Source: a virus. Taken from it: 64,000 nt of DNA. The position numbers were made by a program, and so were the translations under genes. Of the stretch, positions 5,918 to 26,203 are shown one piece after another. The stretch lies in the IMG/VR virus record IMGVR_UViG_3300042988_001550. The stretch is one strand, 5' to 3'. A model generated the notes under the pieces. The model saw nothing but the letters and a program-made list of their open reading frames with translations, was not told the DNA's origin and searched no databases. Position 1 is the first letter of the stretch; every line of letters starts with the position of its first letter.

Positions 5918-6640
5918 ATGTCAGATGTAAAAGACCGGATGTTCATCATCAGCGACATCCACGTTCCCTTCCACAATAGAGCCGCTACCGCCACTGCCCT
6001 CGACTACATCAAAGCAGAGAAGCCGAAGTACTTAACAATCAACGGAGACGCTATTGACTTTTACGCGGTCTCCAAGTACTCCAGAGATCCGAAGCGTCGA
6101 CTGCAAGTACAGCACGAAATTGATGAGTTCCACGACTTTCTAGACCAGGTTCGCGATGCGGTGCCTAATGCTCAGATCTTCTTTGTTGAGGGAAATCACG
6201 AGCAGCGCTGGAACAAGTACCTGAGAGAGTGCGCGTCAGAGCTTGAAGGAGTAACCGGCATGTCGTTGACAGAAGTCCTGTCGCTCGATAAGCGCCGCAT
6301 CAGCTTCACGCCGTCTGGTCTAACGTACGGCAGCTGCTCTATCGTCCACGGAGACGGCCTGTTCGGCGGAAAAGCCGGGTTCACGGCCACAAAGTGGATG
6401 GAGAGATATATGGGTAGCGTGGCTGTTGGGCACATCCACCGACTGGCTATCGTCCACCGCCGAACCGCCAACAAAGAGCGCGTATTCGGTTTGGAATGTG
6501 GTACACTCAGTTCACTAGATCCCGGCTACGAGAAGACATCGTTTGCCGACTGGCAGACTGGTTTCGCTAGCCTGACGCGCTACAAGAACGGGGTAATCGT
6601 CCCCAACATCTACGAAGTGATCGACGGCAACGTATTCTAA
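5918..6640 (+). CDS. calcineurin-like metallophosphoesterase
   Basis: Ordered motifs SDIHVP (DxH), INGDAIDF (GD), EGNHEQR (GNHE), HGD and GHIH (GHxH). Confidence 0.75.
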   Translation: MSDVKDRMFIISDIHVPFHNRAATATALDYIKAEKPKYLTINGDAIDFYAVSKYSRDPKRRLQVQHEIDEFHDFLDQVRDAVPNAQIFFVEGNHEQRWNKYLRECASELEGVTGMSLTEVLSLDKRRISFTPSGLTYGSCSIVHGDGLFGGKAGFTATKWMERYMGSVAVGHIHRLAIVHRRTANKERVFGLECGTLSSLDPGYEKTSFADWQTGFASLTRYKNGVIVPNIYEVIDGNVF

Positions 6641-6957: not shown

Positions 6958-7680
6958 CTAGGAGGGCGTCTCGTTGCTAGCAGGCTCAACGACGGGGATC
7001 GTCGTCGTAGCCGCATCAGTAGCGAGAACATCAGTGTTGGCAGGCGTGTTCGTCAGAAACACGCGATCGATGCCAAGATTCTTGTTGACCTTGTCCAGGC
7101 TGAACATCTCCGCGATCTTCGCCATCAGCTTGGGGTTCTGGCTCAGTCTACGACCGTTCGCGCTCTTCTTCATGTCCACCACGTAAGCATCGTGGTAGCG
7201 TTTGGCGAAGCGAGCCGGTTCGCTAGCCCAGCGACCGTAGTAGCAGTAGTACCCGCGATTCGTCGCCGGATCAACCGTAACACGGTCAATCTGGTCAACC
7301 ACCACGTGCGTCCAACCCGGAGGCGGAAGGTCCGGGAGGAAAATACGCATACCAATGTACTCGCCAGGCTTGCGAGCATTCTCCAGCCAGTTCGTGCAGA
7401 AGCGATGGGCCTTGTCCCAATTCGCCACATCATACATGAGAGGCAGAACGCCGAGGTTCTCGATATCGCCGGATACGGCGTAAGCGACATAGCCCAACAC
7501 GATCGTGTTGCCCAGGCTCATGGGAGGCTGTTCGCGAACGTCAATATCGTGCGCCATCAGGCCGGCTTCCGCATGCACAGTCGCAGGACGCCAGATAGCG
7601 TCACCGTGGCTCAGTCGGCGGTAGAACTGTTGTTCCTCTGTGAGGAAGTTGCTTCCGCTGTTGTTGTTGTCGTAAGTCAT
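6958..7680 (-). CDS. hypothetical protein, 240 aa
   Basis: Long ORF whose stop overlaps the start of the next minus-strand gene. Confidence 0.55.
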   Translation of the reverse strand: MTYDNNNSGSNFLTEEQQFYRRLSHGDAIWRPATVHAEAGLMAHDIDVREQPPMSLGNTIVLGYVAYAVSGDIENLGVLPLMYDVANWDKAHRFCTNWLENARKPGEYIGMRIFLPDLPPPGWTHVVVDQIDRVTVDPATNRGYYCYYGRWASEPARFAKRYHDAYVVDMKKSANGRRLSQNPKLMAKIAEMFSLDKVNKNLGIDRVFLTNTPANTDVLATDAATTTIPVVEPASNETPS

Positions 7681-8456
7681 AGTTTAACAGTCTTGAGGAC
7701 GTCGAAGTCGGGGTTAAGACCGTCAGGTGTATACCCTCTCGGATTGCTGAGAAGGGTTGTCTGACCGATAGTAATGTGAACATTTTCATGTTGGTGGCCA
7801 AATATCCAGAGGTCGGCCTTCTCAATGAGTGAGTCACAATCAGTGCAGAAATAAGCCCAGGAGACCTCGTCGCGACGGTTACGCCATTTTGGGTGAATCG
7901 CCGTCTCGTGGGGTAGGTGATGCGTTACCACAACAGTCTTGCCGTCGAAAGGTTTGGCTAGCTCGTCGGCCAACCAATCTACGCAGAGCGTGTGAATGTT
8001 GTAGATGTCGACCGGTAACAAACGCCGACCCTCATTTTTGATGAGAGCGTAGTCGTTCATTCTGTTACCCGCAACCATCATCTTGAGAGGGTTGCCGCCG
8101 TCAAAGTCCGTCCACATCGTTGTACCGAGGAAGCGCACTCCGTCGATTACAACAGCTTCCCTCTCCAGAACATGGACGTTTGGGAGGTCGCTTAGCAGCT
8201 CCTTGATATTGTCCAGCAGGTTATTCATGTCGTGGTAGTAGAACTCGTGGTTCCCTAAAACGTAAACAACATGGCGGACGATGGACGCCCATGTCCTGAT
8301 GGTTTCAACTGCTTTAGTGCCGACATGGACATCCCCAGCCAGCACTAGCACGTCCACATTGGATAGATCCGGATTAAAGAGAATCGGGTATCCGTAGGAG
8401 TCAAAGAAACCCTCATCAAACTCCAGATGAAGGTCGCTCATCGCTCGTATCTTCAA
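7677..8456 (-). CDS. calcineurin-like metallophosphoesterase
   Basis: Ordered motifs SDLHLEF, LAGDVH, GNHEFY, THHLP and GHQHEN. Confidence 0.75.
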   Translation of the reverse strand: MKIRAMSDLHLEFDEGFFDSYGYPILFNPDLSNVDVLVLAGDVHVGTKAVETIRTWASIVRHVVYVLGNHEFYYHDMNNLLDNIKELLSDLPNVHVLEREAVVIDGVRFLGTTMWTDFDGGNPLKMMVAGNRMNDYALIKNEGRRLLPVDIYNIHTLCVDWLADELAKPFDGKTVVVTHHLPHETAIHPKWRNRRDEVSWAYFCTDCDSLIEKADLWIFGHQHENVHITIGQTTLLSNPRGYTPDGLNPDFDVLKTVKL

Positions 8457-9380: not shown

Positions 9381-9643
9381 CTCAGTCTGTTTGCCGGCGT
9401 TATTTTGACCCCTAAGTGGCGGATATTTCTATAGCATAGAAGTGTCCGCTTTTGTTTTTATGACACACTACACGCGAGCTCAAGACGTTGTTCCCGGAGA
9501 CTACCTCCTCAACCAGAAGACTACTGTGAAAGTAACCAGAGTCGAGAGACACGACGCAGAGATCATTCTGCACCTTTCAAACGGCAAGGTAGACCGCTTG
9601 AAGCCCAATGACAATGTTGCCCTCCTCCCTACCTACGATGACG

Positions 9644-10210
9644 ATGAAGCGTAAGCCGCTATACGTCCTGTTTTACACTGTAAACACTCCGTATGCTGAC
9701 GAGGCAGCGGAGTGTGTAAAAACACTGCGAGAGTTTCACCTCGACTACCACATCTACCCGGTACACAGCGAGGGATCGTGGGAGAAGAACACTCAGATAA
9801 AGGCTCGTGTTATTCAGCAAGCCCTGAAATCCACAGATCGGCCAATCGTGTATGTTGACGCAGACTCGCGTATCAAAAGTTATCCGATCTTATTGGATCA
9901 AATCGAGTGCGACGTGGCTTTCCACTACTTCCGTGGGGTGGAGCTACTCTCTGGTACGCTGTACTTTGGCAACACTGAGCGAGGCCGCAAGCTCGTAGAC
10001 GAGTGGGTTGCCGAGAACATCAAGTACCCCGGAGAGTGGGATCAAAAGGTGCTTCAACATGTTGTCGAGCGCCAGCACGATATTGAGTGGCTAATGCTTC
10101 CAGAAGAATACGTGTACGTTAGCCACCTATCGTCCACAAACAAAACCCCAGTCATTTTTCACACCCAGGCCAGCAGACGGCTCAAGGATCAAGTCAATGC
10201 AACCGCCTAA
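9644..10210 (+). CDS. nucleotide-diphospho-sugar transferase-like protein
   Basis: VYVDADS (DxD-like) motif with a GT-A-like layout. I moved the start to MKRKPLYVLFY. Confidence 0.4.
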   Translation: MKRKPLYVLFYTVNTPYADEAAECVKTLREFHLDYHIYPVHSEGSWEKNTQIKARVIQQALKSTDRPIVYVDADSRIKSYPILLDQIECDVAFHYFRGVELLSGTLYFGNTERGRKLVDEWVAENIKYPGEWDQKVLQHVVERQHDIEWLMLPEEYVYVSHLSSTNKTPVIFHTQASRRLKDQVNATA

Positions 10211-10961
10211 GAAGTACTTTATCGTGTCCGGCGTCTTCAACGCTGAACGGTATATCCGAAGATGCGTCGAGGCTGTCAATGATCAGGTGATCGACGGCTT
10301 CGAGGTGACACATGTAATCATCGATGACGGCTCAACCGATGCTACCGCGTCGGTTATAGCTAAAGTGCCACAAGTACCCCATATTCGCCGACACGTAATC
10401 ACCCACCCGAGAAATCTAGGGTCGGTAGACGCGCAAATGGCCGGCTTTGCTTATGCTCAGAACAATGGCCACGATCACGACGTTATCATCCAACTGGACG
10501 GAGATGATTGGTTTTGCACAGACGAAGCGATCAAAACTGTTCATGATACGTACGTAGAGACCGGTTGCGGTGCGACGTATGGAGATTGGGTTGGAACTTA
10601 CGGTGGCAAATCTAATTGCCGCCTACCAAACTGGTCTAATCTGCACGAGGACCTGAGGAGTAACGGCTGGTGCTTCTCGCACCTTAGAACATTCAGAACA
10701 GGCTACACCCGTCACCTTGACGTCGAGGATTTTAAGGACCCGACAAGAGGCGGTGCGTTCTTTAACGCGGCGTACGATGCGGTAGTCTGTCTGCCGATCT
10801 TCGAGTTTGCCGGAAAAGACAAGGTGGTCTGGATACGTACCCCATTGATCTACTACAACCAAGAGAATCCTCTGGCGGAAGCTCGGTTGCGCCTGAATGA
10901 TCAGAATCACTGTGCATTCGCTAGCTATGACAAAAAAATGCGCGCCCAGGTTGATATTTGA
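10197..10961 (+). CDS. family 2 glycosyltransferase
   Basis: Classic GT2 signature HVIIDDGSTDAT, plus DGDDWF. Confidence 0.7.
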   Translation: MQPPKKYFIVSGVFNAERYIRRCVEAVNDQVIDGFEVTHVIIDDGSTDATASVIAKVPQVPHIRRHVITHPRNLGSVDAQMAGFAYAQNNGHDHDVIIQLDGDDWFCTDEAIKTVHDTYVETGCGATYGDWVGTYGGKSNCRLPNWSNLHEDLRSNGWCFSHLRTFRTGYTRHLDVEDFKDPTRGGAFFNAAYDAVVCLPIFEFAGKDKVVWIRTPLIYYNQENPLAEARLRLNDQNHCAFASYDKKMRAQVDI

Positions 10962-11881
10962 TGCGTCCCATGAAAAGTACCTTCGACACCGTCGCTAGAA
11001 CCACGTTCGATTACAGGAAGCTCGTCGCATCTAGATCCTTTGGAATAGGTACAAGCGGAGACCTCACTGTTGTAATACCTGCCAGATCTCGCGCGTCTTT
11101 CCTTAAACCCACTATACGGTGCTTCAAGGCTGCGGAGCAACTTCTACTAGAGTCAGCAAACCCGAAACGGATAAACTACGTTTTGGTAGAATACTCGCAT
11201 CAGCGTGAGCATGAGGATAGCTGTAAGGATCTAGGTATTGGGTACATTTGGATAGCGTCTAGACCGGATCAGCAGTTCAATAAGTGTCTGGCAATGAACT
11301 GTGGTGCGGTCGCATTCCCGACGTCAAGTTTTTACCTTTTTCATGACATCGATTGTCTAGTACAACGGTCGTTCTTCGTAGATCTGTTCGACAACATTAA
11401 AGCCAGAGACTGTCGCGCAATCCAGGCCTTCTACGGAAGACGCCTGCTTTACCTAAACAAGTCAGCAACAGAGTGCGCGATTGCCGGAGCACTCAATGTT
11501 GATGACATCGACGCTAGTACGCCCGGCATTGTTGTTGGACCTGCCGGAGCACCCGGTGGATCAATCGCCATCGATAGAGAGCTGTTTATAGAGGTTGGCG
11601 GGTTTGATGACGAACTGTTTGCTGGATATGCTCCAGAAGACCGGTTTTTTTGGAACAAGCTGGAGTTGTTAACCAAGGTAGACACGGCGCACAATCCGGT
11701 AATAGAGATGGTGCATATGCACCACGAGTCTGCTATCGGCACAAATCCGTTAAGGAGCCAGTATATTAAGACTTGTGCAGAATTTGATGCCGCAAAACAT
11801 GCGGACAAGATGCGCCTGCTGACGATGAAGAAAAGTAAGCTGATTCCTCACATAACCGCCGAGACGATCAGGTCGTCGTGA
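10958..11881 (+). CDS. glycosyltransferase-like protein (GT-A type)
   Basis: LTVVIPARSRASFL near the N-terminus, FHDIDC, and a later FDDELFAGYAPEDRFF. Confidence 0.45.
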   Translation: MMRPMKSTFDTVARTTFDYRKLVASRSFGIGTSGDLTVVIPARSRASFLKPTIRCFKAAEQLLLESANPKRINYVLVEYSHQREHEDSCKDLGIGYIWIASRPDQQFNKCLAMNCGAVAFPTSSFYLFHDIDCLVQRSFFVDLFDNIKARDCRAIQAFYGRRLLYLNKSATECAIAGALNVDDIDASTPGIVVGPAGAPGGSIAIDRELFIEVGGFDDELFAGYAPEDRFFWNKLELLTKVDTAHNPVIEMVHMHHESAIGTNPLRSQYIKTCAEFDAAKHADKMRLLTMKKSKLIPHITAETIRSS

Positions 11882-12693
11882 TCTTCGTCAACATAAAGGG
11901 CGGGCTATGTAACTCGATGTTCCAGATAGCCGCCGCACATGCTATGGCTATCGAGACTAATTCTGAGTTCTCGGTGCCGAACTTTGACTATCACCTTGAG
12001 TTCATCAATAGCCGCTGGCACATACAGGCGGCCGACGCAACCCATAACAGTGTCAACAATGCTCAAGAGTATCGACAGTTTCTAAAAGTCAAAACAGCTA
12101 AACCTCCGCCACGTTGCGGTCAATACACTTACCCGTTCCACTTTGTTGACACAATTCCTAGAGACGAGCATTTTACAATTGACGGATACTTCCAATCTGA
12201 GAAGTACTTTCGAGGCAAACACGCGGCGGTTAGAGAGCTGTTTCGCATTCCAGAAACGTTAGAGAACACCATTCAGTCAAAGTACCGACAGCTGCTTGAT
12301 GGAACAACGATCGCACTACATGTGCGCCGAGCAGACTACATGTTGTACCCTAATCACCACCCGACGTTGTCGGCTGACTATTATGAGAAGGCTGTAGACG
12401 CCATCGGCAAGTATGACCGAGTGCTGGTATTCTCTGACGATAAAAACTGGAGCAACAGTTCCCTGAAATTTGACAACATGGTTCCCATAACTCAAGAGAA
12501 GGACTATATCGAGCTATTCCTGATGTCGAAGTGTTCTCACAACATCATCAGTAATTCAAGCTTCTCGTGGTGGGGGGCATGGTTAAATCAATCGATTGAC
12601 AAGAAAGTGGTTGGACCTTCTCGGTGGTTTGGTAAGGCATATGATCACTTCAATACAGCCGACATTCTTCCAACTAACTGGATACGTATCTGA
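11878..12693 (+). CDS. alpha-1,2-fucosyltransferase-like protein (GT11 family)
   Basis: GT11 motifs IALHVRRADYM (HxRRxD) and ISNSSFSWWGAWLN. Confidence 0.65.
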   Translation: MIFVNIKGGLCNSMFQIAAAHAMAIETNSEFSVPNFDYHLEFINSRWHIQAADATHNSVNNAQEYRQFLKVKTAKPPPRCGQYTYPFHFVDTIPRDEHFTIDGYFQSEKYFRGKHAAVRELFRIPETLENTIQSKYRQLLDGTTIALHVRRADYMLYPNHHPTLSADYYEKAVDAIGKYDRVLVFSDDKNWSNSSLKFDNMVPITQEKDYIELFLMSKCSHNIISNSSFSWWGAWLNQSIDKKVVGPSRWFGKAYDHFNTADILPTNWIRI

Positions 12694-13109
12694 TGGATAC
12701 CTTTTACTCTCGCGTCTCTCCGAACGATCTGCTGCACATCGTCTATCGCGCAGACGACTTCAAACAGCCGCGTCAAGAAATCGTCCCTGGCAGCAACTTC
12801 ATTCAATGTGCGGCACTGCGACTACCTAAAGAGAAAACGTTCAGAGCACATAAGCACATCACTAAACAACGCTCGTACGATAATCAGATCGCCCAAGAGT
12901 CGTGGATAGTGGTTAAGGGAAGTGTGCGGTGCTTCTTTTACGACTTAGATGATACCCTACTCTCAACATCGACACTGGGTCCCGGTGACGCGAGTTTCAC
13001 CTTAAAGGGTGGTCATAACTATCTAGTACTTGAAGACGATACTATCGTGTACGAGTACAAGACAGGTCCGTATGAAGGGCAGTCACTAGATAAGGTGTTT
13101 TTGTCTTGA
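12693..13109 (+). CDS. cupin-fold protein (sugar epimerase or WbuC-like)
   Basis: Small beta-rich ORF inside the sugar cluster with a histidine-containing cupin-like core. Assignment is tentative. Confidence 0.35.
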   Translation: MDTFYSRVSPNDLLHIVYRADDFKQPRQEIVPGSNFIQCAALRLPKEKTFRAHKHITKQRSYDNQIAQESWIVVKGSVRCFFYDLDDTLLSTSTLGPGDASFTLKGGHNYLVLEDDTIVYEYKTGPYEGQSLDKVFLS

Positions 13110-14059
13110 AGTTGCACCATGTCACCATCAGTGGAACAGGGTCTTACCTGCCGACTACTGTCGTAACAAACGAGAGTCTAGAAAAGACTGTAGATACTAC
13201 AGCGGATTGGATTTTTTCTAAGCTAGGGATCAAAGAGCGGCGTGTAGCACAAGAGGAACTGCCGTCATATATGGGACTTGAGGCGGCAAAGATGGCGATG
13301 GCCTCCGCAGGGATCAGTAAAGAGGATCTCGGCATGATCATAGTGGCCACGTCTAGCCCAGAGCAGATTTCTCCGGCCACCGCCTGCGTGATCCACAACA
13401 AACTCGGGATTCGCAAGAACGTTCCAGCGTTTGATATAAACGCTGTCTGTTCTGGCTTCTTGTACGCTGTGTCTCTGGCGGCCACCATGGTAAGCCATGG
13501 AACGTATGATCACGTTCTTGTTATCGCAACTGAGGCCTACTCGAAGATTACAGACTGGCACGATAAGCACTGTGTCTTCTTCGGAGACGGTGCCGGTGCT
13601 GTCGTTGTTAGTAGATCAGAAACAGGCTGGATGTCGTTTCTCCTAGAGGCAAACGGCTCCGGTACCGGGATGACCGGGTTCAAGCTACCGTTAAACTCGG
13701 TGTTTACGATGCGTGGTAAAGAAGTTTGGGATCAGGCGGTTAAGGTCATCCCTGACTCCATTAGGCAAGTGATGGCTCAATGTGATATAGGAATTGATGA
13801 CATCAGCCTGATCATCCCACATCAACCAAGTATTCACATCCTCAAGCAGGTAGCCGAACAACTAAACTGCCCGTTCTCGAAGGTCAAGACCGTCATGGAC
13901 AGGTATGCAAACATTGCAGGAGCGTCAATTCCTATCGCACTAGACGAGGCTGTGCGTCAGCAACAGGTTCGTCGCGGAGACCTCATCGTTTTATCAGCTA
14001 TAGGCTCTGGATGGACGTGGGGTTCGATGGTAGTTAGGTACGAGGGAGCAACATGCTAG
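13106..14059 (+). CDS. 3-oxoacyl-ACP synthase III (FabH/KAS III)-like
   Basis: ISGTGSYLP, catalytic-Cys context DINAVCSGF, GDGAGAVVV, HQPS, and GNIAGASIPIALDEA with Asn. Confidence 0.75.
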   Translation: MKLHHVTISGTGSYLPTTVVTNESLEKTVDTTADWIFSKLGIKERRVAQEELPSYMGLEAAKMAMASAGISKEDLGMIIVATSSPEQISPATACVIHNKLGIRKNVPAFDINAVCSGFLYAVSLAATMVSHGTYDHVLVIATEAYSKITDWHDKHCVFFGDGAGAVVVSRSETGWMSFLLEANGSGTGMTGFKLPLNSVFTMRGKEVWDQAVKVIPDSIRQVMAQCDIGIDDISLIIPHQPSIHILKQVAEQLNCPFSKVKTVMDRYANIAGASIPIALDEAVRQQQVRRGDLIVLSAIGSGWTWGSMVVRYEGATC

Positions 14060-14589
14060 ATAAGTTCAAAAAAGTCGGCGTCGATGTGCGAGTCAGCGAT
14101 CTGGCGGTAATTACCAGACCACACTTGATCGAGCTTGGAGACCATATCTCCATCGACCAGTGGGTCTATTTTTCCACGCAGGCCCGTCTAGGCTCGTACA
14201 TCCATATCGCACCGTCGGTGTCAATTATTGGAGGAGCAGACGCGCTGCTGGTGATGGAAGACTTCACTAACATCGGGTCCGGTGGCCGCATCGTGTGCGC
14301 ATCCGACGACTTCACCCAGGGCCTAATCGCCCCAGTCGTCCCAATCGAGTTCAGGACAGTGATAAACAAGCCCGTGACATTCAAGCGGTACTCAACTCTT
14401 GGAGTGAACTGTTCAGTGCTTCCCGGAGTAACCCTTGCTGAGGGGAGCATCGTTGGCGCCAACTCTGTGGTAACGAAAGACACGGAGCCGTGGATGATCT
14501 ATGCCGGTACTCCGGCGAGACCAATCAAGATGCGAGAAAAGACACGAATCATCGAGAGTGGTAAGAAATTGATGAATTACCCGGACTGA
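14053..14589 (+). CDS. hexapeptide-repeat (left-handed beta-helix) acyltransferase
   Basis: Repeated [LIV]-G-x-x-x-x hexads (ISIDQWVYFS..., IGSGGRIV, VGANSVV). Typical of PerB/WbbJ-type N-acetyltransferases. Confidence 0.7.
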   Translation: MLDKFKKVGVDVRVSDLAVITRPHLIELGDHISIDQWVYFSTQARLGSYIHIAPSVSIIGGADALLVMEDFTNIGSGGRIVCASDDFTQGLIAPVVPIEFRTVINKPVTFKRYSTLGVNCSVLPGVTLAEGSIVGANSVVTKDTEPWMIYAGTPARPIKMREKTRIIESGKKLMNYPD

Positions 14590-14613
14590 TCCTATAAGAC
14601 CGAACACGTAGCC

Positions 14614-15216
14614 ATGAACCTTAGAGAGCTTGCGCGGTGGGAGCATGACAACGGCCCTACAACACATTTTGTACAGTATGACCTGACTCCAGAAAGTGTC
14701 TGTTTCGATGTCGGGGCATATATTGGACAATACGCGCAGCTGATGCACGACAGATATTCTTGCCGGGTGTTCTGCTTTGAACCAGTGCGGGCGCATTTTG
14801 AGCAGCTAGTTTCCCGGCTACAAGGTAGATCTGGTATACAGTGCTTCAATGTCGGTCTCGGTCCAGAGGACACTAACCAGATCATAGCCATCAATGCCGA
14901 CTCGTCGAGCCTATTTTGTCTTAGCGACCGTATTGAGCTTGTCACAATTAGGTCCATAGACGCTGTTATGCGCGAAACCGCAGTCGGACAGATTGATCTG
15001 ATCAAGATCAACATAGAAGGCGGAGAGTACGCACTGCTTGATCATTGCCTAGGTACCGGACTCATCACAAGGTTTAGAAACATCCAGGTACAGTTTCATG
15101 ACTTTTTTCCCGACGCTGTTCACAGACGCAATACAATTAGAGACAAACTGTCGCTGACACACGACATAACATATGATTACGAGTTTGTGTGGGAAAATTG
15201 GAAACTAAGAACCTAA
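14614..15216 (+). CDS. FkbM-family methyltransferase
   Basis: FDVGAYIGQY (SAM motif I), then a FEP...F...FNVGLG pattern. Confidence 0.6.
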   Translation: MNLRELARWEHDNGPTTHFVQYDLTPESVCFDVGAYIGQYAQLMHDRYSCRVFCFEPVRAHFEQLVSRLQGRSGIQCFNVGLGPEDTNQIIAINADSSSLFCLSDRIELVTIRSIDAVMRETAVGQIDLIKINIEGGEYALLDHCLGTGLITRFRNIQVQFHDFFPDAVHRRNTIRDKLSLTHDITYDYEFVWENWKLRT

Positions 15217-15234
15217 TCAGAACAGTAGAGGACT

Positions 15235-15831
15235 GTGATGTCTTTTGACAGTGTGAGAGAGTTTGAGGATCAACTAGCTGCCTTTTTTGGGGCACCGCAC
15301 GCCATCGCTGTAGACTCGTGCACGCACGGGATCGAGCTGTGTCTGCGATACACCAACGAACGCAGCATCAGTGTTCCAAAACGAACATACATCTCTATTC
15401 CATTCTTGGCGAAGAAGTTACAGATTGACCTCTTTTGGCGCGACGAGTCCTGGGTAGACCACTATCAGGTTGCTCCGTCTATCGTCGACGCAGCTGTTTT
15501 ATGGAAACCTAACAGCTACAAGCCTGGACACATGATGAGCGTGAGCTTTCAGTTTCAAAAACACCTGTCGCTTGGGCGTGGCGGAGTTATTCTTCTAGAC
15601 GACCCGGTCGCCGCCAAGGCACTGAAAAAGATGTCCTACGACGGACGTCTTCCCGGTATTCCGTGGAGAGAGCAGGACATCGAGACTGTCGGGTATCACT
15701 ACTACATGACGCCAGAAACAGCTCAACTCGGCTTGAGTAAGCTCCCAGCCGCGATAGCCACAACGCCACGACAGTGGGTTGTCACTGATTGGCCCGACCT
15801 CACTAAAATGACTGTGTTCAAGCCCTCATGA
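15235..15831 (+). CDS. DegT/DnrJ/EryC1-like aminotransferase, half-length form
   Basis: N-terminal EFEDQLAAFFGAPHAIAVDSCTHGIELCL and C-terminal SFQFQKHLSLGRGGVILLDD both match the DegT family. The central ~150 aa, including the PLP-lysine region, seem to be missing. Confidence 0.45.
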   Translation: MMSFDSVREFEDQLAAFFGAPHAIAVDSCTHGIELCLRYTNERSISVPKRTYISIPFLAKKLQIDLFWRDESWVDHYQVAPSIVDAAVLWKPNSYKPGHMMSVSFQFQKHLSLGRGGVILLDDPVAAKALKKMSYDGRLPGIPWREQDIETVGYHYYMTPETAQLGLSKLPAAIATTPRQWVVTDWPDLTKMTVFKPS

Positions 15832-16811
15832 AAACCGCACTGATCACCGGAATCTCTGGACAAGATGGTAGCTATCTATCTGAGCACCTATTGTCCCTGG
15901 GATATACCGTTCACGGCATTGTGAGAAGACACTCGGTTGCTGAGAATCAGGATGTGCGCATCCGATCACTCAACGTACACACCCACTATGGCGACCTGCT
16001 TGACATCTTCTCACTTCAGCGTGTGCTAGCAGAAGTCAAACCGGACGAGATTTACAACCTGGCTGCAATGAGTCATGTCAGAATTAGCTTCGACATGCCA
16101 TCGTTTACTATCCAGACCAACGCCCTAGGGGTCCTGAACATTCTGGAGGCGTACAGAACAGCTGTACCAACAGCACGATTCTATCAGGCTAGCTCGTCAG
16201 AGATGTTTGGAAACTCTGTCGATAGCGACGGCGTTCAACGACTAACTACCCCGATGAATCCCGTAAGCCCCTACGGGTGTGCAAAGCTACTAGGTTACAA
16301 TCTCGTGCGGCACTACCGCAATGCGTACAAACTTCACGCGTGTAACGGTATCCTGTTCAACCACGAGTCTCCAAGAAGAGGCACGAACTTCGTCACGAAC
16401 AAGGTTGTTCGTGGAGCAGTAGAGATCTATCTCGGCCAACGGAAGGAGCTCGTACTTGGTAACCTCGACTCCGTTCGAGACTGGGGACACGCAAAAGACT
16501 ACACGCGCGGTATGCACGCAATCGTTAACCACAGCACTCCCGATGACTTCATTATTGCGTCAGGAGAGGGCCGCTCTGTTCGTGACTTGTGTGAAGCGGT
16601 GTTCTCTAACCTAGGACTCGATTACCGAGACCTCGTCCGACAGGAGGGCCGATTCATGCGCCCAGAGGAGCTGAAATATTTGAGAGGCGATTCCAGTAAG
16701 ATCCGAGAGCAGCTCGGCTGGCGCCCAGAATACACTTTCGACAGTATGATCAAGGAAATGATTACGTACTGGATGAACACCTTACAGCTACCAAGTAAGG
16801 CGGTAAAGTGA
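15828..16811 (+). CDS. gmd: GDP-mannose 4,6-dehydratase
   Basis: N-terminal ALITGISGQDGSYLSEHLLSLGYTVHGIVRR, SSSEMFG, YGCAKL (YxxxK), NHESPRRG, and a GMD-like C-terminus. Confidence 0.85.
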   Translation: MKTALITGISGQDGSYLSEHLLSLGYTVHGIVRRHSVAENQDVRIRSLNVHTHYGDLLDIFSLQRVLAEVKPDEIYNLAAMSHVRISFDMPSFTIQTNALGVLNILEAYRTAVPTARFYQASSSEMFGNSVDSDGVQRLTTPMNPVSPYGCAKLLGYNLVRHYRNAYKLHACNGILFNHESPRRGTNFVTNKVVRGAVEIYLGQRKELVLGNLDSVRDWGHAKDYTRGMHAIVNHSTPDDFIIASGEGRSVRDLCEAVFSNLGLDYRDLVRQEGRFMRPEELKYLRGDSSKIREQLGWRPEYTFDSMIKEMITYWMNTLQLPSKAVK

Positions 16812-16823
16812 TTACACTTAGGT

Positions 16824-17138
16824 GTGAAATCTTACCCGAAGCAGTTCAAGTACGGCGGCATAAAGTACCGGATCATTTCTGAAGAAATGCCAGGGTTCTC
16901 TGGTATGGTTACCAAGGAACCGCCCGTAATCCGTATCTCTCCAAAAGACAACCAAACTGCGGAGGAGTATCGTAAGACGCTCCTCCACGAAATTCTTCAC
17001 GTGATTCTCTGGAATTGTGCCCAGAACAAACAGTCCTTCCTTAGACTTAAGGAAGAGACCTTGGTTGCCTTCTTAGAGAAGGAGATGTTCGAGGCCAAGC
17101 GTCTGAACCCTAAACTCTTCAAGTTTCTTTTTGGATGA
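16824..17138 (+). CDS. small HExxH metallopeptidase-like protein
   Basis: LLHEILHVIL contains HExxH. Otherwise unrecognised. Confidence 0.35.
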   Translation: MKSYPKQFKYGGIKYRIISEEMPGFSGMVTKEPPVIRISPKDNQTAEEYRKTLLHEILHVILWNCAQNKQSFLRLKEETLVAFLEKEMFEAKRLNPKLFKFLFG

Positions 17139-17515
17139 CCCTTCCCAAAACAATAACCATCGCCGTTCCTGATCGACCGCTATTTATGATCAAATCAAGA
17201 CGGCTACGTAAAAATTCAGACGGTGTGCAGATGACAGGGCAGCTAGACACCGAAAAGCAGGAGCTGATCATTCACGCTAGCCTAGACGAACGGCAACAGT
17301 CTGCCGCGCTCATAACCCTCTTGTCCATCCTTAACGAGGATCCAGCATACAAGGGACACCTGGCCCCAACACTTAATGAGAGCCTCTATAAGGTAGAGTG
17401 GTATACTTCAGGTAAGCCAGCTGCTGTGGCGACCAAACCGTCAAAGGACGCGACTAGGACCCAGGTTTTAGACATGGGTGACGACATCAAGATGATTAAG
17501 AGAGTAGGACACTAA
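17135..17515 (+). CDS. hypothetical protein, 126 aa
   Basis: Translationally coupled to neighbours. Confidence 0.5.
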   Translation: MTLPKTITIAVPDRPLFMIKSRRLRKNSDGVQMTGQLDTEKQELIIHASLDERQQSAALITLLSILNEDPAYKGHLAPTLNESLYKVEWYTSGKPAAVATKPSKDATRTQVLDMGDDIKMIKRVGH

Positions 17516-18864
17516 TGAGCACCCCGACACCGATCACTGATCCCGTAACTGTGGAAGACGTGGTCGATCCCGTAGAGACTGATCTGAGCCCCGGAGACAA
17601 CGGTTATCCGTGGCAGCTAGCTTTCGATAAGCACATTATCGTCGAGCCCGGCAAGATTACCCTGCCTGATGGCAAGGTTGTTACAACCGCCGCAGACGGC
17701 GGACCAATTAGATACGAGCTGGCAGAAGCTATTAGACTGTCTTGGACACACCGCTGCCTGAGCATTAAGTGCCGTGGCAGTATCCGTGGCGCCGTGCTTG
17801 GCGTATACGACAAGGGTAAGGCAGATCACGTTGCGTGGCCTATCCCGATCGGTGGCGTTGTGATTCGCAGCGATGATCCTAGAAATCCGGCCACAATTGA
17901 GCAGATCGATTTCGGCGGCGATACCCGCAATACTACGGGAAGCACTGGGGTTCGTCAGATCCTGATCAAGGGCGTAAAGCTCAAGAACACGTTCTGGCCC
18001 AGCACTGGTGCGTCCTCAAAGAGCCCTGTCCTCGTCCGAATGGGCTCGTGGCTAGGATTGATCGGTATTCACGACTGCGAGTTCATTTCATCCGACCCGG
18101 CAGCTTTCCAGGGCTGGGGAATGATGTGGGGTGTCCGTGGCCACGGTCGTGCCCGCTGGGACCTGCGTCGCAACAAGACGGTGAAGCTGCAAGAGCACTT
18201 CTTCTACCTAGACAGCCCAGGCGCAGACGGCGGCGGCCCGTCGTACTTCTGTGCTAACGTGCAAGGCGGACCAAGCGGTCGCACCGGCCTACAGATCGTC
18301 AATAGAGCCACGCCAGGAGCCCCCGACTACGGTGGACCTACTGGACTAGGCAGCCTGTACATCCAGCGTAACAGCTTCTGGTGTGCCGGCGGTGGCGGTG
18401 GCGCCAACATTACGATTGCCGGGCACCTTGGGGACGTCTTCATCGAGGACAACGACCTAACATGCTCTGGTCCCCACGGAGGCATCGTTATCTGGGCGGA
18501 CGGCGGTAAGGGACTTCACAAGACAGCCGACGGCTTCATTGTTCCCTACGCTCGACTGATCAATAACAAGATCTCGGCCACAGGCGTGGACCGCTCAGCT
18601 ATTGCCGTGTCCGGAACCGGCGAACTGATCATCGACGACTTCGATATTGAAACGAACCGCACGGCGATCGACCTGTTCAACTCCAACGGCGGTGGCGTAC
18701 CTAACGGTATTGTGACCGTAACGGCTGGGATCGATCGTGAGTCTCAGAAAGTAATCACGCCTCTTCCGCAGTACCCCGGCTTTGCCAAGGCGTGGGTCAA
18801 GATGAAGCTACGTGGGCGCGTCCTAACCAACGCAGAAATTCTGCAGTACCAGCGCTGGGCGTAG
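17515..18864 (+). CDS. right-handed beta-helix protein (possible tailspike or polysaccharide depolymerase)
   Basis: Gly- and Asn-rich repeats with pectate-lyase-like turns (IHDCEFISSD, NITIAGHLGDVFIEDNDL, NNKISATG). Confidence 0.45.
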   Translation: MSTPTPITDPVTVEDVVDPVETDLSPGDNGYPWQLAFDKHIIVEPGKITLPDGKVVTTAADGGPIRYELAEAIRLSWTHRCLSIKCRGSIRGAVLGVYDKGKADHVAWPIPIGGVVIRSDDPRNPATIEQIDFGGDTRNTTGSTGVRQILIKGVKLKNTFWPSTGASSKSPVLVRMGSWLGLIGIHDCEFISSDPAAFQGWGMMWGVRGHGRARWDLRRNKTVKLQEHFFYLDSPGADGGGPSYFCANVQGGPSGRTGLQIVNRATPGAPDYGGPTGLGSLYIQRNSFWCAGGGGGANITIAGHLGDVFIEDNDLTCSGPHGGIVIWADGGKGLHKTADGFIVPYARLINNKISATGVDRSAIAVSGTGELIIDDFDIETNRTAIDLFNSNGGGVPNGIVTVTAGIDRESQKVITPLPQYPGFAKAWVKMKLRGRVLTNAEILQYQRWA

Positions 18865-18899
18865 TGGCTTCCAGACCGAGTAATGACAAGCTGTTGACG

Positions 18900-19295
18900 A
18901 TGGAGGCGAGAATCGCCACCATCGAAGCTAATTACCTCCGTCTGCTTGAGAATACACACGCCACAGCCGACGCTCTTGAAAGACACGCAGAGCGCTCATC
19001 TGAGGCAATTGAAGGACTCATATCAAAGCTCGCTGCCGCCAAGGTTCCTCAATGGGGAGCCCTGGCGTCATGGGCAGCTGTGATTCTCACAATCGTTGGC
19101 CTTCTTCTAGCCAGCATCAACAGGGATCAGGCGAAGATCTCAACCGAACTCGATAAACAGCGAGAGCAGATTGAAGTGCTAAAAGAGAAGCTCTCCTCAA
19201 TGTCTACTGAGGTAGCTGAGCTAAAAACAAGGCAGCAGATCACGACTGATGTCATCTTGCCAGATATGCTAGACAAGATAAAGCAGACTAAGTAA
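18900..19295 (+). CDS. coiled-coil protein with one TM segment
   Basis: Started at internal MEARIATIEANYL. Has WAAVILTIVGLLLA and heptad-like stretches, and ends just before a strong terminator. Confidence 0.45.
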   Translation: MEARIATIEANYLRLLENTHATADALERHAERSSEAIEGLISKLAAAKVPQWGALASWAAVILTIVGLLLASINRDQAKISTELDKQREQIEVLKEKLSSMSTEVAELKTRQQITTDVILPDMLDKIKQTK

Positions 19296-19331
19296 AAAAG
19301 AAGGGGTGGTTTCGGCCACCCCTTCCCGTTT
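19295..19331. terminator. bidirectional rho-independent terminator
   Basis: AAGGGGTGG-tttcg-CCACCCCTT hairpin with an A-run on one side and a T-rich run on the other. Lies between convergent genes. Confidence 0.7.
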
Positions 19332-21460: not shown

Positions 21461-21537
21461 TGGTGCGCCAGGTAGGACTCGAACCTACAACTTACCGGGT
21501 AGAAACCGGTGTGTCTATCCAATTGACTTACTGGCGC
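21461..21537 (-). tRNA. tRNA-Arg(UCU)
   Basis: GCGCCAG/CTGGCGC, ACCGG/CCGGT with loop TTTCTAC, GTAGG-TTCGAGT-CCTAC, and an encoded CCA. The D-stem is weak. Confidence 0.7.
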
Positions 21538-21539
21538 GG

Positions 21540-21956
21540 TTATGGAGCGAGTCGGTAATCAGATGCAAAACGCACCCCTACCAACTGCTTATTTCTAGGA
21601 GGCCTAGTTCTGAGTGTGACGGACTTTTCTACATCGTCCTTACCAACATAGTAGACCTCTTTTGTATTTGGACAGTAGATGGCAATCACGTCATACTCCG
21701 CCTTATCCATTGGAGTTATGTGCGTGCCGTGTCTATCATTCCAACATGAACGGAGATTGACGGTGATTGCGCCCTTTCTATCCACCTCGCGGTACTTAAC
21801 CTGAATTCTTGAGAATGCCTGACCGTCCCAAGAAACCAAATCAAATGTCTGAAATTCAGATAGAGGCACGAGCACAATCCGCCCCTGCTCAGCCAGATCT
21901 GCCGCAACCTTCATTACGCCCAGGTCGCCTTTAGTTTTAGTGTGATGATGCTTCAT
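21540..21956 (-). CDS. PD-(D/E)XK nuclease-like protein (Hjc-type resolvase or homing-endonuclease-like)
   Basis: The core GRIVLVPLSEF...FDLVSWDG...SRIQVKY fits a D...(E/Q)VK nuclease pattern. It sits between a tRNA 5' fragment and tRNA-Arg. Confidence 0.45.
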   Translation of the reverse strand: MKHHHTKTKGDLGVMKVAADLAEQGRIVLVPLSEFQTFDLVSWDGQAFSRIQVKYREVDRKGAITVNLRSCWNDRHGTHITPMDKAEYDVIAIYCPNTKEVYYVGKDDVEKSVTLRTRPPRNKQLVGVRFASDYRLAP

Positions 21957-21985
21957 GTGTAAAGCATAGCGACACCAGCAGATTA

Positions 21986-22021
21986 GGCAACCGTTGCTCT
22001 ATCCAGCTGAGCTACGGGGGC
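21986..22021 (-). pseudogene. 5' fragment of an Arg-type tRNA (acceptor, D-arm and half the anticodon arm)
   Basis: GCCCCCG-TA-GCTC-AGCTGGATA-GAGC-A-ACGGT-TGCC is a perfect tRNA 5' half. The matching 3' end sits at 21431..21452, with no anticodon 3' stem, variable loop or T-stem 5' strand between them. Confidence 0.55.
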
Positions 22022-22029
22022 ATTGTTAG

Positions 22030-22812
22030 TTAATGATCCGCAAACTGCGGATCATTATTTTGAAGACCTGCCTTACGCAGTTCTTTGGTGTTCAGTTGCT
22101 TACCAGGAGTGACATCGCGCTCTTCTCTGAAGAAGCGGTGCATTCTGGTATAGTGCCAATTTCCGTCCGCATCCTGCATATAAGACGAGTAATCGACCTC
22201 ATCGTATGCAACCGTTCTGGTCACGATGACAGCTCGGAACCAGCAACCGTTGCGGTACAGGAGATCGAGGCACTTGTTGTCTCTATAGGCCACGTCCGCG
22301 TCATCGAGCCGGATCTGACCTTTGTACTGATCTCCGCGCCACTTCATGTATGTACGGCGACTCTTCTGAAGGATACCACAAGCATCCACATAGAATCGCT
22401 CACCGGACACGTAGTACCACCTTGCCATCTCTTTGACGAGCAGGTGGCGGTAATCAGTTTCCACGCGACCCGTGAGGTAATGGAGCAGCCAACGACCTGA
22501 CGGCGATCTATAGTCGTACAGCCGACGCAGCTCGGAGTAAACCGCATCCCACGGTCTTCCAACATGGGCCTGGAGAAACTTCTCCAAAGGAGATATGCTC
22601 CAGAAAGGGCTCCGGCGGTCCAAGCGACCGTCAACGAAGATCATCGTTCGCTCCGGCAGGCTATCCTCGGGCAGGTGCTGGAGGTTACCGCGATTGATTC
22701 TACCACGGAACTTCGACCGCGACCTTCTACCCCTCGAACGACCGCGTTCGAGGATATCCTTATCAAGTCTCTTTGTGTCTCGCATCTGGCTTTCGTGTTT
22801 AGTGGTAAACAA
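22030..22812 (-). CDS. hypothetical protein, about 251 to 260 aa
   Basis: Long ORF. The track uses a TTG start; an ATG start at 22785 is an alternative. Confidence 0.55.
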   Translation of the reverse strand: MFTTKHESQMRDTKRLDKDILERGRSRGRRSRSKFRGRINRGNLQHLPEDSLPERTMIFVDGRLDRRSPFWSISPLEKFLQAHVGRPWDAVYSELRRLYDYRSPSGRWLLHYLTGRVETDYRHLLVKEMARWYYVSGERFYVDACGILQKSRRTYMKWRGDQYKGQIRLDDADVAYRDNKCLDLLYRNGCWFRAVIVTRTVAYDEVDYSSYMQDADGNWHYTRMHRFFREERDVTPGKQLNTKELRKAGLQNNDPQFADH

Positions 22813-22846
22813 AAGAGGTAGCCAAACAATCTGCAGACTACATAAG

Positions 22847-22855
22847 TCTTATGAC
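22847..22855 (+). promoter_or_regulatory. CTTATGACA motif copy (palindromic form CATAAG-T-CTTATG)
   Basis: Exact 9-mer between two minus-strand genes. Confidence 0.4.
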
Positions 22856-22895
22856 ACATATTGTTGGTGGTTGGCGGGGGAACCCGCCAACCACG

Positions 22896-23387
22896 TCACT
22901 TATTGTGCGGGTTTACTTTTGACTTCCAGCGTTTGCCTTGAGAGACTCTGCCGAAATCGATGCAAACCATCTTGCCGTTTATCGTACCGAGGTTGGCGTG
23001 GTGCAGGTCCCATGTATTCAGTTTAGCTTCCCGGATCTTATCCAGAAACGCCTCTGTGGGCGCACGTCTACCAACATTCTGAGCAACCTGCGTGAAGTAG
23101 CCGTAGACCTTGGTCCGATTAAGACCATCAAATCCACGCTCACCGTACGGTACAAAAAGGTGGAAGCGTTGCCCGACTGCTGGAGCTAGCTTCTTCTTGT
23201 GACCGTAGTATTGCCCATAGAACGAATGATCCCGCTCCTGCTTAGTTGGGAACAGTTTGATACCTGTCGAGTCGCTAATCCGGATGAACCCACTCTCCAC
23301 TCCAGTGGACATCTTGGATCCCCCCAATAGCGAGGACATTATCAGCAATTTGTTGTGCTTCGTCATCCGAAGCGATGCGATTGTCAT
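22896..23387 (-). CDS. small protein-kinase-like protein
   Basis: DLHHANLG (catalytic-loop-like HxDxxxxN) and VCIDFG (DFG). The N-terminus is probably shorter than the track shows, because it overlaps the upstream gene. Confidence 0.4.
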   Translation of the reverse strand: MTIASLRMTKHNKLLIMSSLLGGSKMSTGVESGFIRISDSTGIKLFPTKQERDHSFYGQYYGHKKKLAPAVGQRFHLFVPYGERGFDGLNRTKVYGYFTQVAQNVGRRAPTEAFLDKIREAKLNTWDLHHANLGTINGKMVCIDFGRVSQGKRWKSKVNPHNK

Positions 23388-23823
23388 TGACTTGTGTTGG
23401 CCAGTAGTAAGGAATGTCTGGTCCTTCTGTCCAACCGAATCTTCCGTAATATAGCGGGTCCTTCCTTAACAGGTTAGACCTATGTGATGCGTGAAAACGC
23501 TCGTTCCTGAACCAAGGAGGACACTCCATTAGTATTGGAGCTGGGGTCAGTGGCATCCTATTACGGCGACCACGCCTCTCCCATTCCCGTATGGACTCAT
23601 TGTAGTAGACGGCCAACATACGCTCATAACCTTGCCACATCAGCCTGGCTGGATGGTTTACCCATCCACGGCGAGAACGAGGTACGGTGCCGTCTACTTT
23701 CGGTAAATCTACGCCCAAACTGCGAAGAAGCTGTCCGGCCTCGATTCTCTGCTTACCTAGCCGCCTATTGTCTAGACACTGCAATGACAGGCGAATATCT
23801 GGGTAAGGGAGAAAGGTCTGCAC
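23275..23823 (-). CDS. hypothetical protein, 182 aa (weak resemblance to pyrimidine-dimer glycosylase N-termini)
   Basis: MQTFLPYPD...LDNRRLGKQRIEAGQLL has a T4 EndoV-like pattern. This is low-confidence recall. Confidence 0.5.
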   Translation of the reverse strand: MQTFLPYPDIRLSLQCLDNRRLGKQRIEAGQLLRSLGVDLPKVDGTVPRSRRGWVNHPARLMWQGYERMLAVYYNESIREWERRGRRNRMPLTPAPILMECPPWFRNERFHASHRSNLLRKDPLYYGRFGWTEGPDIPYYWPTQVNDNRIASDDEAQQIADNVLAIGGIQDVHWSGEWVHPD

Positions 23824-24677: not shown

Positions 24678-24868
24678 TAGAAGAAGTCCCCTTCTTTGAT
24701 CAGGTCAATGACCTGGTCTGGCGTCATCTTACTCTGATAACGCATCTGTTGCGTCAACTTGGAAATCATCGAACGCTTGAGGCTGGACTTTTCCAGCTCT
24801 CTGCCGATCATGATACCGACGAACACGCCGATACCAGCCACGGCAAGAATCATCAAAAACCAGAGCAT
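24677..24868 (-). CDS. small membrane protein, possible NfeD-like partner of the SPFH protein
   Basis: 63 aa with the N-terminal TM segment MLWFLMILAVAGIGVFVGIMIG. Its stop abuts the start of the SPFH gene. Confidence 0.45.
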   Translation of the reverse strand: MLWFLMILAVAGIGVFVGIMIGRELEKSSLKRSMISKLTQQMRYQSKMTPDQVIDLIKEGDFF

Positions 24869-24898
24869 TGCTCTCCTTGTTGGTTACTACTTTGAAGG

Positions 24899-24975
24899 TG
24901 GTCGGGGCGGCCGGATTCCAACCGACGACCTGCTGGACCCAAACCAGCCGCTCTAGCAAACTGAGCTACGCCCCG
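24899..24975 (-). tRNA. tRNA-Pro(UGG)
   Basis: CGGGGCG/CGCCCCG, GCTC/GAGC, GCTGG/CCAGC with loop TTTGGGT, GTCGG-TTGGAAT-CCGGC, and an encoded CCA. Confidence 0.75.
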
Positions 24976-24979
24976 AAGA

Positions 24980-25064: not shown

Positions 25065-25070
25065 ACCCGA

Positions 25071-26089: not shown

Positions 26090-26134
26090 GTTCGGTTACA
26101 GTACGCTAGTACTGCCCAAAAGAGTTACAAAAAA

Positions 26135-26173: not shown

Positions 26174-26203
26174 TAAAAACAAGGACTTGTGGTCCTTGTT
26201 AGG

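Follow-up and report, generated by a model that had tools for sequence, protein, structure and literature searches.

Introduction

GDP-perosamine pathways comprise Gmd, Per and the N-acetyltransferase PerB in Escherichia coli O157 and Caulobacter, and Gmd, Per and the N-formyltransferase WbkC in Brucella. Here we describe a phage sugar-modification island in which Gmd (GDP-mannose 4,6-dehydratase) is encoded directly downstream of a DegT-like protein of 198 amino acids (aa), referred to below as mini-DegT. The island lies in a 64-kb stretch of viral DNA (IMG/VR record IMGVR_UViG_3300042988_001550), the whole of which is called the window; related islands and loci used for comparison carry L numbers (L003, L010, L014 and so on). 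Like the GDP-perosamine pathways, the window has a Gmd entry, a DegT-family Lys that aligns to K186 of Per, and an N-modifying enzyme, and a sister island, L010, resembles the Brucella pathway in having a WbkC-like formyltransferase. It differs from them in the size of its aminotransferase (198 versus about 370 aa), in the presence of a cupin in the core and in the addition of FabH and FkbM proteins. Its left-handed beta-helix (LbH) acyltransferase is also unlike PerB, which it matches at only E 4e-4.

A second point of comparison is anthrose, 2-O-methyl-4-(3-hydroxy-3-methylbutanamido)-4,6-dideoxyglucose (PMC9614988). This sugar is made by the AntA-D pathway of Bacillus anthracis/cereus and is found on the exosporium glycoprotein BclA. 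The product predicted for the window likewise carries an N-beta-(hydr)oxyacyl and an O-methyl group on a 4-amino-4,6-dideoxyhexose, and the LbH protein is 36% identical to AntD. In contrast to the dTDP-gluco sugar of the anthrose pathway, the window sugar would be a GDP-manno sugar derived from Gmd, and its acyl donor would come from FabH rather than from an enoyl-CoA hydratase (AntA); the half-size aminotransferase and the phage context are further differences.

Among viruses, Mimivirus carries 2-O-methyl-N-acetyl-viosamine on its fibrils (PMC9614988). As proposed for the window, a virus-encoded 4,6-dehydratase, aminotransferase and N-acyltransferase lead to an O-methylated 4-acylamino-4,6-dideoxyhexose (PMC9614988). 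Mimivirus is, however, a eukaryotic giant virus that uses UDP-sugars, a full-size aminotransferase and an acetyl group, and its sugar decorates the virion fibres. Mycobacteriophage glycosyltransferases are described as decorating capsid and tail-tube proteins (Freeman et al. 2023, as cited in PMC12619734), and virion-protein glycosylation is likewise one candidate fate of the window sugar; mycobacteriophages, unlike the window phage, use host nucleotide sugars and encode no comparable sugar-building pathway.

Clusters of glycosyltransferase and nucleotide-diphosphate-sugar genes are also present in large lytic phages, as in the sugar and lipopolysaccharide islands of the large cyanophages and huge phages S-SCSM2R, P-SSM2 and LR756502. 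Two of these encode relatives of mini-DegT, namely ORF305 of S-SCSM2R (50% identical) and a protein of the 642-kb phage LR756502 (67% identical). The Synechococcus phage S-SCSM2R copy, the one example from a cultured phage that was found described, bears the annotation 'AHBA synthase / antibiotic synthesis gene', and its short length passed unremarked (PMC12801897). Unlike these islands, in which none is reported, the window has a FabH-LbH module. Phage nucleotide-sugar islands are thus known; what is new is an abundant, uncharacterised, half-size DegT-family protein coupled to Gmd. The recurrent FabH-LbH acylation module is a second point of interest.

Results

A half-size DegT-family protein is coupled to Gmd

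Gmd (15828..16811, + strand; 327 aa) matched Pfam GDP_Man_Dehyd at 5e-112. Its top 11 matches in the Protein Data Bank (PDB) were all GDP-mannose 4,6-dehydratases (about 258-299 bits), against 125 bits for Rmd and 123 bits for a heptose dehydratase, and a GILFNHESPRRG motif was visible in the alignment to PDB relatives. The score against NCBIfam TIGR01472 was 361.9 bits, below the equivalog cutoff of 415; judged by homology, the identity of the protein is secure, though it is divergent and short. The same homology supports a claim of an earlier note on this DNA, that Gmd is the entry to the pathway and makes GDP-4-keto-6-deoxymannose. The earlier note had also seen no GDP-fucose synthase gene (fcl/wcaG), and a phmmer search of the window with the GMER-like protein of a relative indeed found Gmd alone.

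The start of the Gmd gene overlaps the stop of the mini-DegT gene by 4 nucleotides (nt). Mini-DegT (15235..15831, +) is a DegT-like protein presumed to use pyridoxal phosphate (PLP), and matched Pfam DegT at 61.9 bits (cutoff 19.8) in two separated stretches. Full-length sugar aminotransferases have a two-domain architecture of about 360-420 aa with a small C-terminal domain (Per, about 370 aa; PDB relatives of mini-DegT, 358-424 aa), which is not found in the 198-aa protein. The best match of a mini-DegT profile was GDP-perosamine synthase. HMMER aligned residues 1-53 with residues 35-90 of that enzyme and residues 99-178 with 179-255, placing Lys109 exactly on the Schiff-base Lys186, the K186A entry included; mini-DegT lacks the N-terminal arm, a single beta-alpha unit and all of the C-terminal domain. 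With an AF2 model of mini-DegT (pLDDT 85), the top Foldseek matches were all sugar aminotransferases, with TM-scores of 0.6-0.73 on the query and 0.35-0.40 on the target, the matches spanning just 35-40% of the target structures. The 'DegT-type aminotransferase' (Per) of the earlier note therefore holds as to family and aligned Lys, but at 198 aa the protein departs from ordinary Per enzymes. The possibility that the gene had been miscalled or split was considered and rejected: an upstream stop bounds the open reading frame (ORF), thousands of homologues have the same length, and no separate ORF for a C-terminal domain was detected.

Conservation was counted in 50 relatives with 31-55% identity to mini-DegT. 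D85, S104, F105, G116 and G117 were present in all 50 and K109 in 49, while position 30 was Thr or Ser and position 155 His or Asn throughout. From its place in a predicted strand, D85 may contact the pyridine nitrogen, and position 155 is the cross-subunit Asn/His position. The pattern therefore points to selection for PLP chemistry. Homologues are numerous, with at least 8,000 in a large protein collection, the best 120 of which are all 194-214 aa long and 70-76% identical; a representative library held 858 clusters, nearly all of 190-260 aa, and at least 597 viral contigs in IMG/VR encode a relative. In some relatives, a GNAT acetyltransferase is fused to the protein. The family has no model of its own in Pfam, NCBIfam or PHROG, no solved structure among the PDB relatives has the length of mini-DegT, and a search of the accessible literature returned no description of a half-size DegT family.

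Mini-DegT is predicted, from these alignments, to be a minimal sugar aminotransferase acting on the Gmd product. A search for full-length DegT proteins across the window found none, and mini-DegT is the best candidate for the amination step because most islands, like the window, hold no other aminotransferase. Several points weigh against this assignment. The role is predicted from sequence and a model whose weakest part is the catalytic loop (pLDDT < 50 at 108-113), and the protein is without some 170 residues that are present in every characterised sugar aminotransferase. In addition, two related islands (L011 and L016) encode, besides mini-DegT next to Gmd, a full-length DegT adjacent to the cupin; the two forms are therefore not simply interchangeable.

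Such observations could also be explained if mini-DegT were not an aminotransferase but a degenerate or non-catalytic partner of Gmd (a stabiliser, regulator or scaffold), or catalysed another PLP reaction, the product then being a 6-deoxyhexose with no amino group, on which LbH would place an O-acyl group and FkbM an O-methyl group. Loss of the arm, the beta-alpha unit and the C-terminal domain would fit, as would the almost invariable direct coupling to Gmd, the full-length DegT genes that some islands hold besides mini-DegT, and the scores of LbH with the O-acetyltransferases WbbJ and WcaF. We consider this explanation unlikely. A scaffold would not need the PLP Lys, Asp, Ser and Thr and the cross-subunit Asn/His, all kept at 31-55% identity; amine-specific modifiers are encoded nearby (a WbkC-like N-formyltransferase in L010, an AntD-like N-acyltransferase in the window); fusions of mini-DegT to GNAT exist; and other aminotransferase candidates are wanting in most islands.

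The cupin, mini-DegT and Gmd form a conserved core

Gene content was compared in the 80 best IMG/VR loci with mini-DegT. Gmd was encoded in 64 of these, with a median start 26 nt downstream of mini-DegT, and a cupin of 136-140 aa in 61. LbH was present in 23, FabH in six and a ketoreductase in four, and a recognisable full-length DegT in merely about eight. The cupin, mini-DegT and Gmd form a conserved core, in which relatives are 55-65%, 61-76% and 63-75% identical, respectively, to the window proteins. GC content was 30-37% in the other cassette loci compared, and about 52% in the window, with the island slightly lower (48-51%). In the phage contexts examined, mini-DegT always lay within a large-phage sugar island, and contigs with such islands also encode Cpn60, a clamp loader, gp32, a RecA-family (UvsX-like) recombinase or PhoH.

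The slot between the cupin and mini-DegT holds swappable enzymes of a sugar-amine-modifying kind. In L010, which has the closest mini-DegT (76% identity), it is occupied by a formyltransferase, for which the GDP-perosamine N-formyltransferase of Brucella (5VYS) gave the best match in the PDB (8e-15); a small class I S-adenosylmethionine (SAM) methyltransferase fills it in 24 of the 80 loci, and LbH does so in the window and in many other loci.

The cassette was also found in bacteria. A 380-kb SAR11-like single-cell contig (L034, 7049-12823) has the order cupin, LbH-like protein, mini-DegT and Gmd, neighboured by a GMER-like gene and genes for a WecA-like initiating transferase, a Wzy_C ligase, a GT11 protein and a full-size DegT; this copy is part of a bacterial O-antigen locus. 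In a Bdellovibrio isolate (L037, 4657-9088), mini-DegT lies next to a radical SAM/SPASM enzyme and a short-chain dehydrogenase/reductase (SDR) of short length instead of Gmd. A radical SAM gene also neighbours mini-DegT in S-SCSM2R and L010.

Taken together, we tentatively propose, with rather more doubt than conviction, that mini-DegT represents a new minimal class of PLP sugar aminotransferase that is active without the arm, the beta-alpha unit and the C-terminal domain. It might be an obligate partner of Gmd, taking the labile 4-keto sugar from it directly, and would be the standard amination step of the cupin/mini-DegT/Gmd cassette in aquatic phages and marine-bacterial O-antigen loci.

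Five of the related sugar islands encode unusual enzymes (L003, 17905-19089; L006, 14687-18284; L016, 15598-19230; L007, 14702-18855; L011, 14113-18262). These are a RuBisCO-large-subunit-like protein, a TPP-dependent enzyme with acetaldehyde dehydrogenase and an HMGL-like aldolase, and a DHQ-synthase-like protein with an HpcH/HpaI aldolase, and they suggest branched-chain or higher-carbon sugars.

The cupin and the position of the amine

The cupin of the window (12693..13109, +; 138 aa) was assigned as a WbuC-like, metal-motif protein from a sub-threshold WbuC model (TIGR04366, 35 bits; cutoff 42) and from structure prediction. Its H53-x-H55...E69...H108 residues, the metal-binding signature of the WbuC family, are invariant, and several homologues are named WbuC family by JGI. 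Using the predicted structure (pLDDT 85), Foldseek ranked the 3,4-ketoisomerases FdtA, QdtA, FdtD and WlaRA first, at weak E-values of 0.02-0.1. Sequence and profile searches against the PDB gave chance matches only, Pfam FdtA was not matched, and the WbuC literature found contained nothing on function. The cupin is predicted to act on the keto sugar, as an epimerase or a 3,4-ketoisomerase. A role as mannose-6-phosphate isomerase was also considered and is unlikely; no other genes for GDP-mannose supply are present.

The structural matches do not tell an isomerase from an epimerase, so the amine might sit at C3, counter to the perosamine-type product favoured here. An FdtA-type 3,4-ketoisomerase would give an N-acyl-3-amino-3,6-dideoxyhexose, mycosamine-like rather than perosamine-like, and the cupin shares with FdtA and QdtA a comparable chain length (138 versus 132-144 aa) and has an H-x-H pair (H53, H55), in addition to the Foldseek ranking. 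We judge this outcome improbable, however, given the marginal Foldseek E-values, the missing Pfam FdtA match and a full H-x-H...E...H motif that is the classical metal-binding motif of the WbuC family. Moreover, LbH matched AntD at 2e-27 and QdtC at 4e-8, and the L010 formyltransferase matched WbkC at 8e-15 and WlaRD at 7.5e-4. An amine at C4 is more likely because these downstream enzymes match 4-amino-specific enzymes better.

FabH and LbH as a proposed acylation module

The gene that follows the cupin encodes a FabH-type ketoacyl synthase III (KAS III) of 317 aa (13106..14059, +), with 338 bits against NF006829 (cutoff 249) and 317.8 bits against TIGR00747 (cutoff 292.1). The protein aligned end-to-end with Aquifex FabH (2EBD, 268 bits) and resembles FabH/KAS III enzymes in its full-length fold, its Cys115/His239/Asn269 triad and its scores above the NCBIfam thresholds. 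Unlike canonical FabH, it is encoded in a sugar operon with no acyl carrier protein (ACP) nearby, and it has HQPSIH in place of the HQAN.R motif. Canonical FabHs in the PDB alignments show hqan.r, whereas HQP[SN]I[NH] was present in 118 of the 120 closest homologues of the window protein. In E. coli FabH the Arg of HQAN.R docks ACP; NphT7, a CoA-using relative of KAS III, is an acetoacetyl-CoA synthase. With the ACP-docking Arg absent and no ACP gene in the window, the donor could be linked to CoA, which would plausibly suit an AntD-like, CoA-dependent transferase.

LbH (14053..14589, +; 178 aa; Pfam Hexapep, 32.5 bits) is encoded immediately downstream. Its best PDB match was AntD (3VBI-3VBP; E 2e-27, 99 bits, 36% identity, residues 5-169 against 32-195), with the next class at about 44 bits or less, QdtC at 36.5 bits and PerB at 23.5 bits. 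Entry 3VBN is AntD (PMC6031040), the enzyme responsible for N-acylation in the anthrose pathway. By analogy with AntD, which uses a beta-hydroxyacyl-CoA, the window protein is suggested to be an AntD-type N-acyltransferase that would use a beta-hydroxyacyl-CoA on a 4-amino-4,6-dideoxyhexose. The N-acyl part of an earlier PerB-like assignment is thus retained on the strength of full-length identity to AntD, while the likeness to PerB itself is weak. LbH enzymes may also be O-acyltransferases, and WbbJ and WcaF score similarly in NCBIfam, which counts against N-acylation.

FabH and LbH recur together. A FabH that is 61-66% identical lies directly upstream of LbH in L014, L016, L121 and L122, accompanied by an SDR ketoreductase in the first three, and LbH of FabH-bearing islands is 72-80% identical to that of the window, compared with 41-54% in FabH-less islands. 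A route from FabH through the ketoreductase to LbH for a short 3-oxo/3-hydroxyacyl group fits these arrangements. The 3-hydroxyacyl group suggested in the earlier note gains from finding FabH, the same LbH and an SDR ketoreductase together in related islands; within the window, a search found neither a ketoreductase nor an ACP, and the exact acyl group is therefore a guess. A PhyH-family Fe/2OG hydroxylase is encoded after LbH, in the position of FkbM, in L014 (6533-7438), L121 (10475-11383) and L122 (8645-9565), and hints at hydroxylation of the acyl chain in these FabH-bearing islands. A peptide-pattern scan of IMG/VR for FabH found no relatives, tblastn against INPHARED gave at most 39% identity to unrelated or unannotated records, none of them in sugar islands, and the search of the accessible literature returned no phage FabH described in a sugar cluster.

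A full-length FabH with its catalytic triad and scores above the NCBIfam FabH thresholds might instead be in the island by chance, as an auxiliary metabolic gene that has nothing to do with the sugar and increases fatty-acid synthesis in the host. This is very unlikely. The gene overlaps both of its neighbours (by 4 nt with the cupin gene and 7 nt with the LbH gene), FabH is directly upstream of LbH in at least five independent islands of very different GC content, the sequence of LbH covaries with the presence of FabH, the HQAN.R motif is replaced in this clade, and no other fatty-acid genes were found in the window.

FkbM and the glycosyltransferases

Between LbH and mini-DegT, an FkbM-family SAM methyltransferase is encoded (14614..15216, +; 200 aa; TIGR01444, 71.7 bits, cutoff 37.7; Pfam Methyltransf_21, 1.7e-11), which is predicted by family membership to be a sugar O-methyltransferase.

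Four genes upstream of the cupin had been listed in the earlier note as glycosyltransferases, and three of these scored above the Pfam threshold. The first (9608..10210, +; 200 aa) encodes a GT-A type nucleotide-diphospho-sugar transferase (Pfam Nucleotid_trans, 25.9 bits, cutoff 22) that is soluble and without a hydrophobic segment, and the second (10197..10961, +; 254 aa) a GT2 glycosyltransferase (Pfam Glycos_transf_2, 4.7e-19, 69 bits; phrog_841, GtrB-like, 2e-10). The third (10958..11881, +; 307 aa) is only a probable GT-A glycosyltransferase because its score falls below the Pfam threshold (Glyco_tranf_2_2, 1.7e-5, 24.9 bits against a cutoff of 27.3); it is 38% identical to a gene product of the related island L014. 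The fourth (11878..12693, +; 271 aa) is a GT11 (fucosyltransferase-family) glycosyltransferase (Pfam Glyco_transf_11, 9e-19, 68.2 bits against 23.9; phrog_2644, 8.6e-57). GT11 is also encoded beside the cassette in L006, L011, L014, L016, L034 and L121. As GDP-6-deoxyhexose donors are typical of GT11 and the family recurs beside the cassette, GT11 would be the natural transferase for the product, and it likely uses the GDP-activated 6-deoxy sugar.

Organisation of the island and its phage setting

The island comprises ten + strand ORFs (9608-16811) whose starts and stops mostly overlap. The earlier coordinates (9644-16811) were essentially right for all ten genes, except that the first ORF begins at 9608, and the earlier gene list was borne out by Pfam, PHROG and NCBIfam domain searches, which gave family matches far above chance for most island genes. 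Distances at the nine junctions (-14, -4, -4, -1, -4, -7, +24, +18 and -4 nt) indicate an operon-like arrangement. No membrane-spanning segment was found in any of the 13 ORFs between 9608 and 18864, and the island is read as one operon of soluble cytoplasmic enzymes.

Just 5' of the island lies a terminator-like hairpin with a 15-bp stem and a T-run (9418..9450, +), which is the probable 5' boundary of the transcription unit. Four further + strand ORFs of 104, 126, 449 and 167 aa follow the island (16824..19295; junction gaps of +12, -4 and -1 nt). These are probably in the same unit because the next terminator-like hairpin, a bidirectional one at a switch of coding strand and the probable 3' boundary, is only at 19300..19327. 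The 449-aa ORF (17515-18864, +), apparently co-transcribed with the island, has repetitive Gly-rich stretches and was without a match in Pfam, PHROGs, the PDB or INPHARED.

The window comes from a large tailed phage that has not been cultured. Searching INPHARED for DNA nearly identical to the island gave no match, and the helicase of the window is merely 35-37% identical to helicases of cultured phages. Fourteen tRNA genes form two arrays (21461-27052 and 58376-59792), with a tmRNA gene (59447-59792) whose tag peptide is AEPQLAMAA. Adjoining the tRNA/tmRNA array is a Ro60 homologue (61377-62963, -; TROVE and vWA_Ro60 domains, phrog_850), near which a Y-RNA-like partner might be encoded. A gp6-like baseplate wedge gene is followed directly by an ORF of 3,764 aa (35843-49110, +). 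Elsewhere, ORFs at 5918-6640 (+), 7677-8456 (-), 23823-24677 (-) and 25071-25751 (-) encode two calcineurin-like phosphoesterases, an SPFH/Band 7 protein and a cREC_REC (cyclic-phosphate-processing receiver domain) protein. The ORF at 27852-28640 (+), once labelled DUF115/Maf-like, had no Pfam or PHROG match, so that label was not upheld; the only similarity found was to an MptE-like protein encoded in the L003 sugar island, and it was weak (phmmer, 5.8e-5).

Discussion

On balance, and with some reservation, we favour a pathway that leads from host GDP-mannose through a decorated amino-6-deoxyhexose to an acceptor. Judged by homology, Gmd makes GDP-4-keto-6-deoxymannose. The WbuC-like cupin may then epimerise or isomerise the keto sugar, and mini-DegT would transaminate it, with C4 as the likeliest position and a sugar of the perosamine type as the result. 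FabH could join acetyl-CoA and a malonyl thioester into a short beta-ketoacyl donor, from which the AntD-like LbH would move the acyl group onto the amine; the ketoreductase of related islands would give the 3-hydroxyacyl form, and in the window phage host FabG might do so. FkbM would O-methylate the sugar, and GT11 and the three GT-A enzymes would build the glycan on an acceptor. This pathway is predicted to yield a GDP-activated, O-methylated amino-6-deoxyhexose with a short beta-oxo/hydroxyacyl group on its nitrogen, which would be the manno-series counterpart of anthrose and of the 2-O-methyl-N-acetyl-viosamine that Mimivirus fibrils carry. An N-acylated, O-methylated amino-6-deoxyhexose had already been named as the likely product, and the identity of LbH to AntD lends this support.

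The acceptor can be considered in light of what the island does and does not encode. No family match to an initiating polyprenyl-phosphate transferase, flippase, polymerase or ABC exporter was found in the ORFs of 9608-18864; therefore the island alone would not make a lipid-linked polymer. Interference with, or mimicry of, a host-surface glycan is favoured because the bacterial twin of the cassette sits in an O-antigen locus. Virion glycosylation is equally possible, given co-transcription with late-looking ORFs and the viral precedents, and indeed the sequence by itself fits virion glycosylation, host-surface remodelling and receptor masking alike. The earlier argument from a Ser/Thr-rich giant fiber proved marginal: the 3,764-aa ORF has 19% Ser+Thr, compared with 12-19% in neighbouring proteins, and no collagen-like repeats.

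A further conceivable target is the phage DNA: instead of acting on proteins or polysaccharides, the sugar pathway and the glycosyltransferases would then hypermodify it, with glycans placed on modified bases. Phage glycosyltransferases are described as putting diverse glycans on DNA (Pyle et al. 2024, as cited in PMC12619734), and the island enzymes are all soluble. We regard this as most improbable, since the scanned ORFs of the window yielded no base-hydroxymethylase and no other gene for DNA modification, the same cassette lies alongside WecA-like and Wzy_C genes in the O-antigen locus of a bacterium, and GT11, GT2 and AntD-like enzymes are polysaccharide or glycoprotein enzymes.

Sugar islands of large phages are usually annotated singly, gene after gene, and then left aside. 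Viewed together, they reveal a portable core of a cupin, a half-size PLP protein and Gmd with swappable tailoring modules, common to many aquatic phages and bacterial O-antigen loci. The FabH-LbH pair, if its proposed role is true, would be a new supply of unusual N-acyl groups for sugars, and the identity of the glycan and its acceptor would tell virion disguise from host-surface rewriting. If mini-DegT is active, it would redefine the minimal architecture of a fold-type I sugar aminotransferase, offer a compact enzyme for the production of GDP-amino sugars, and assign a concrete, testable role to numerous genes from environmental DNA that currently go by the labels 'aminotransferase', 'AHBA synthase' or 'hypothetical'.

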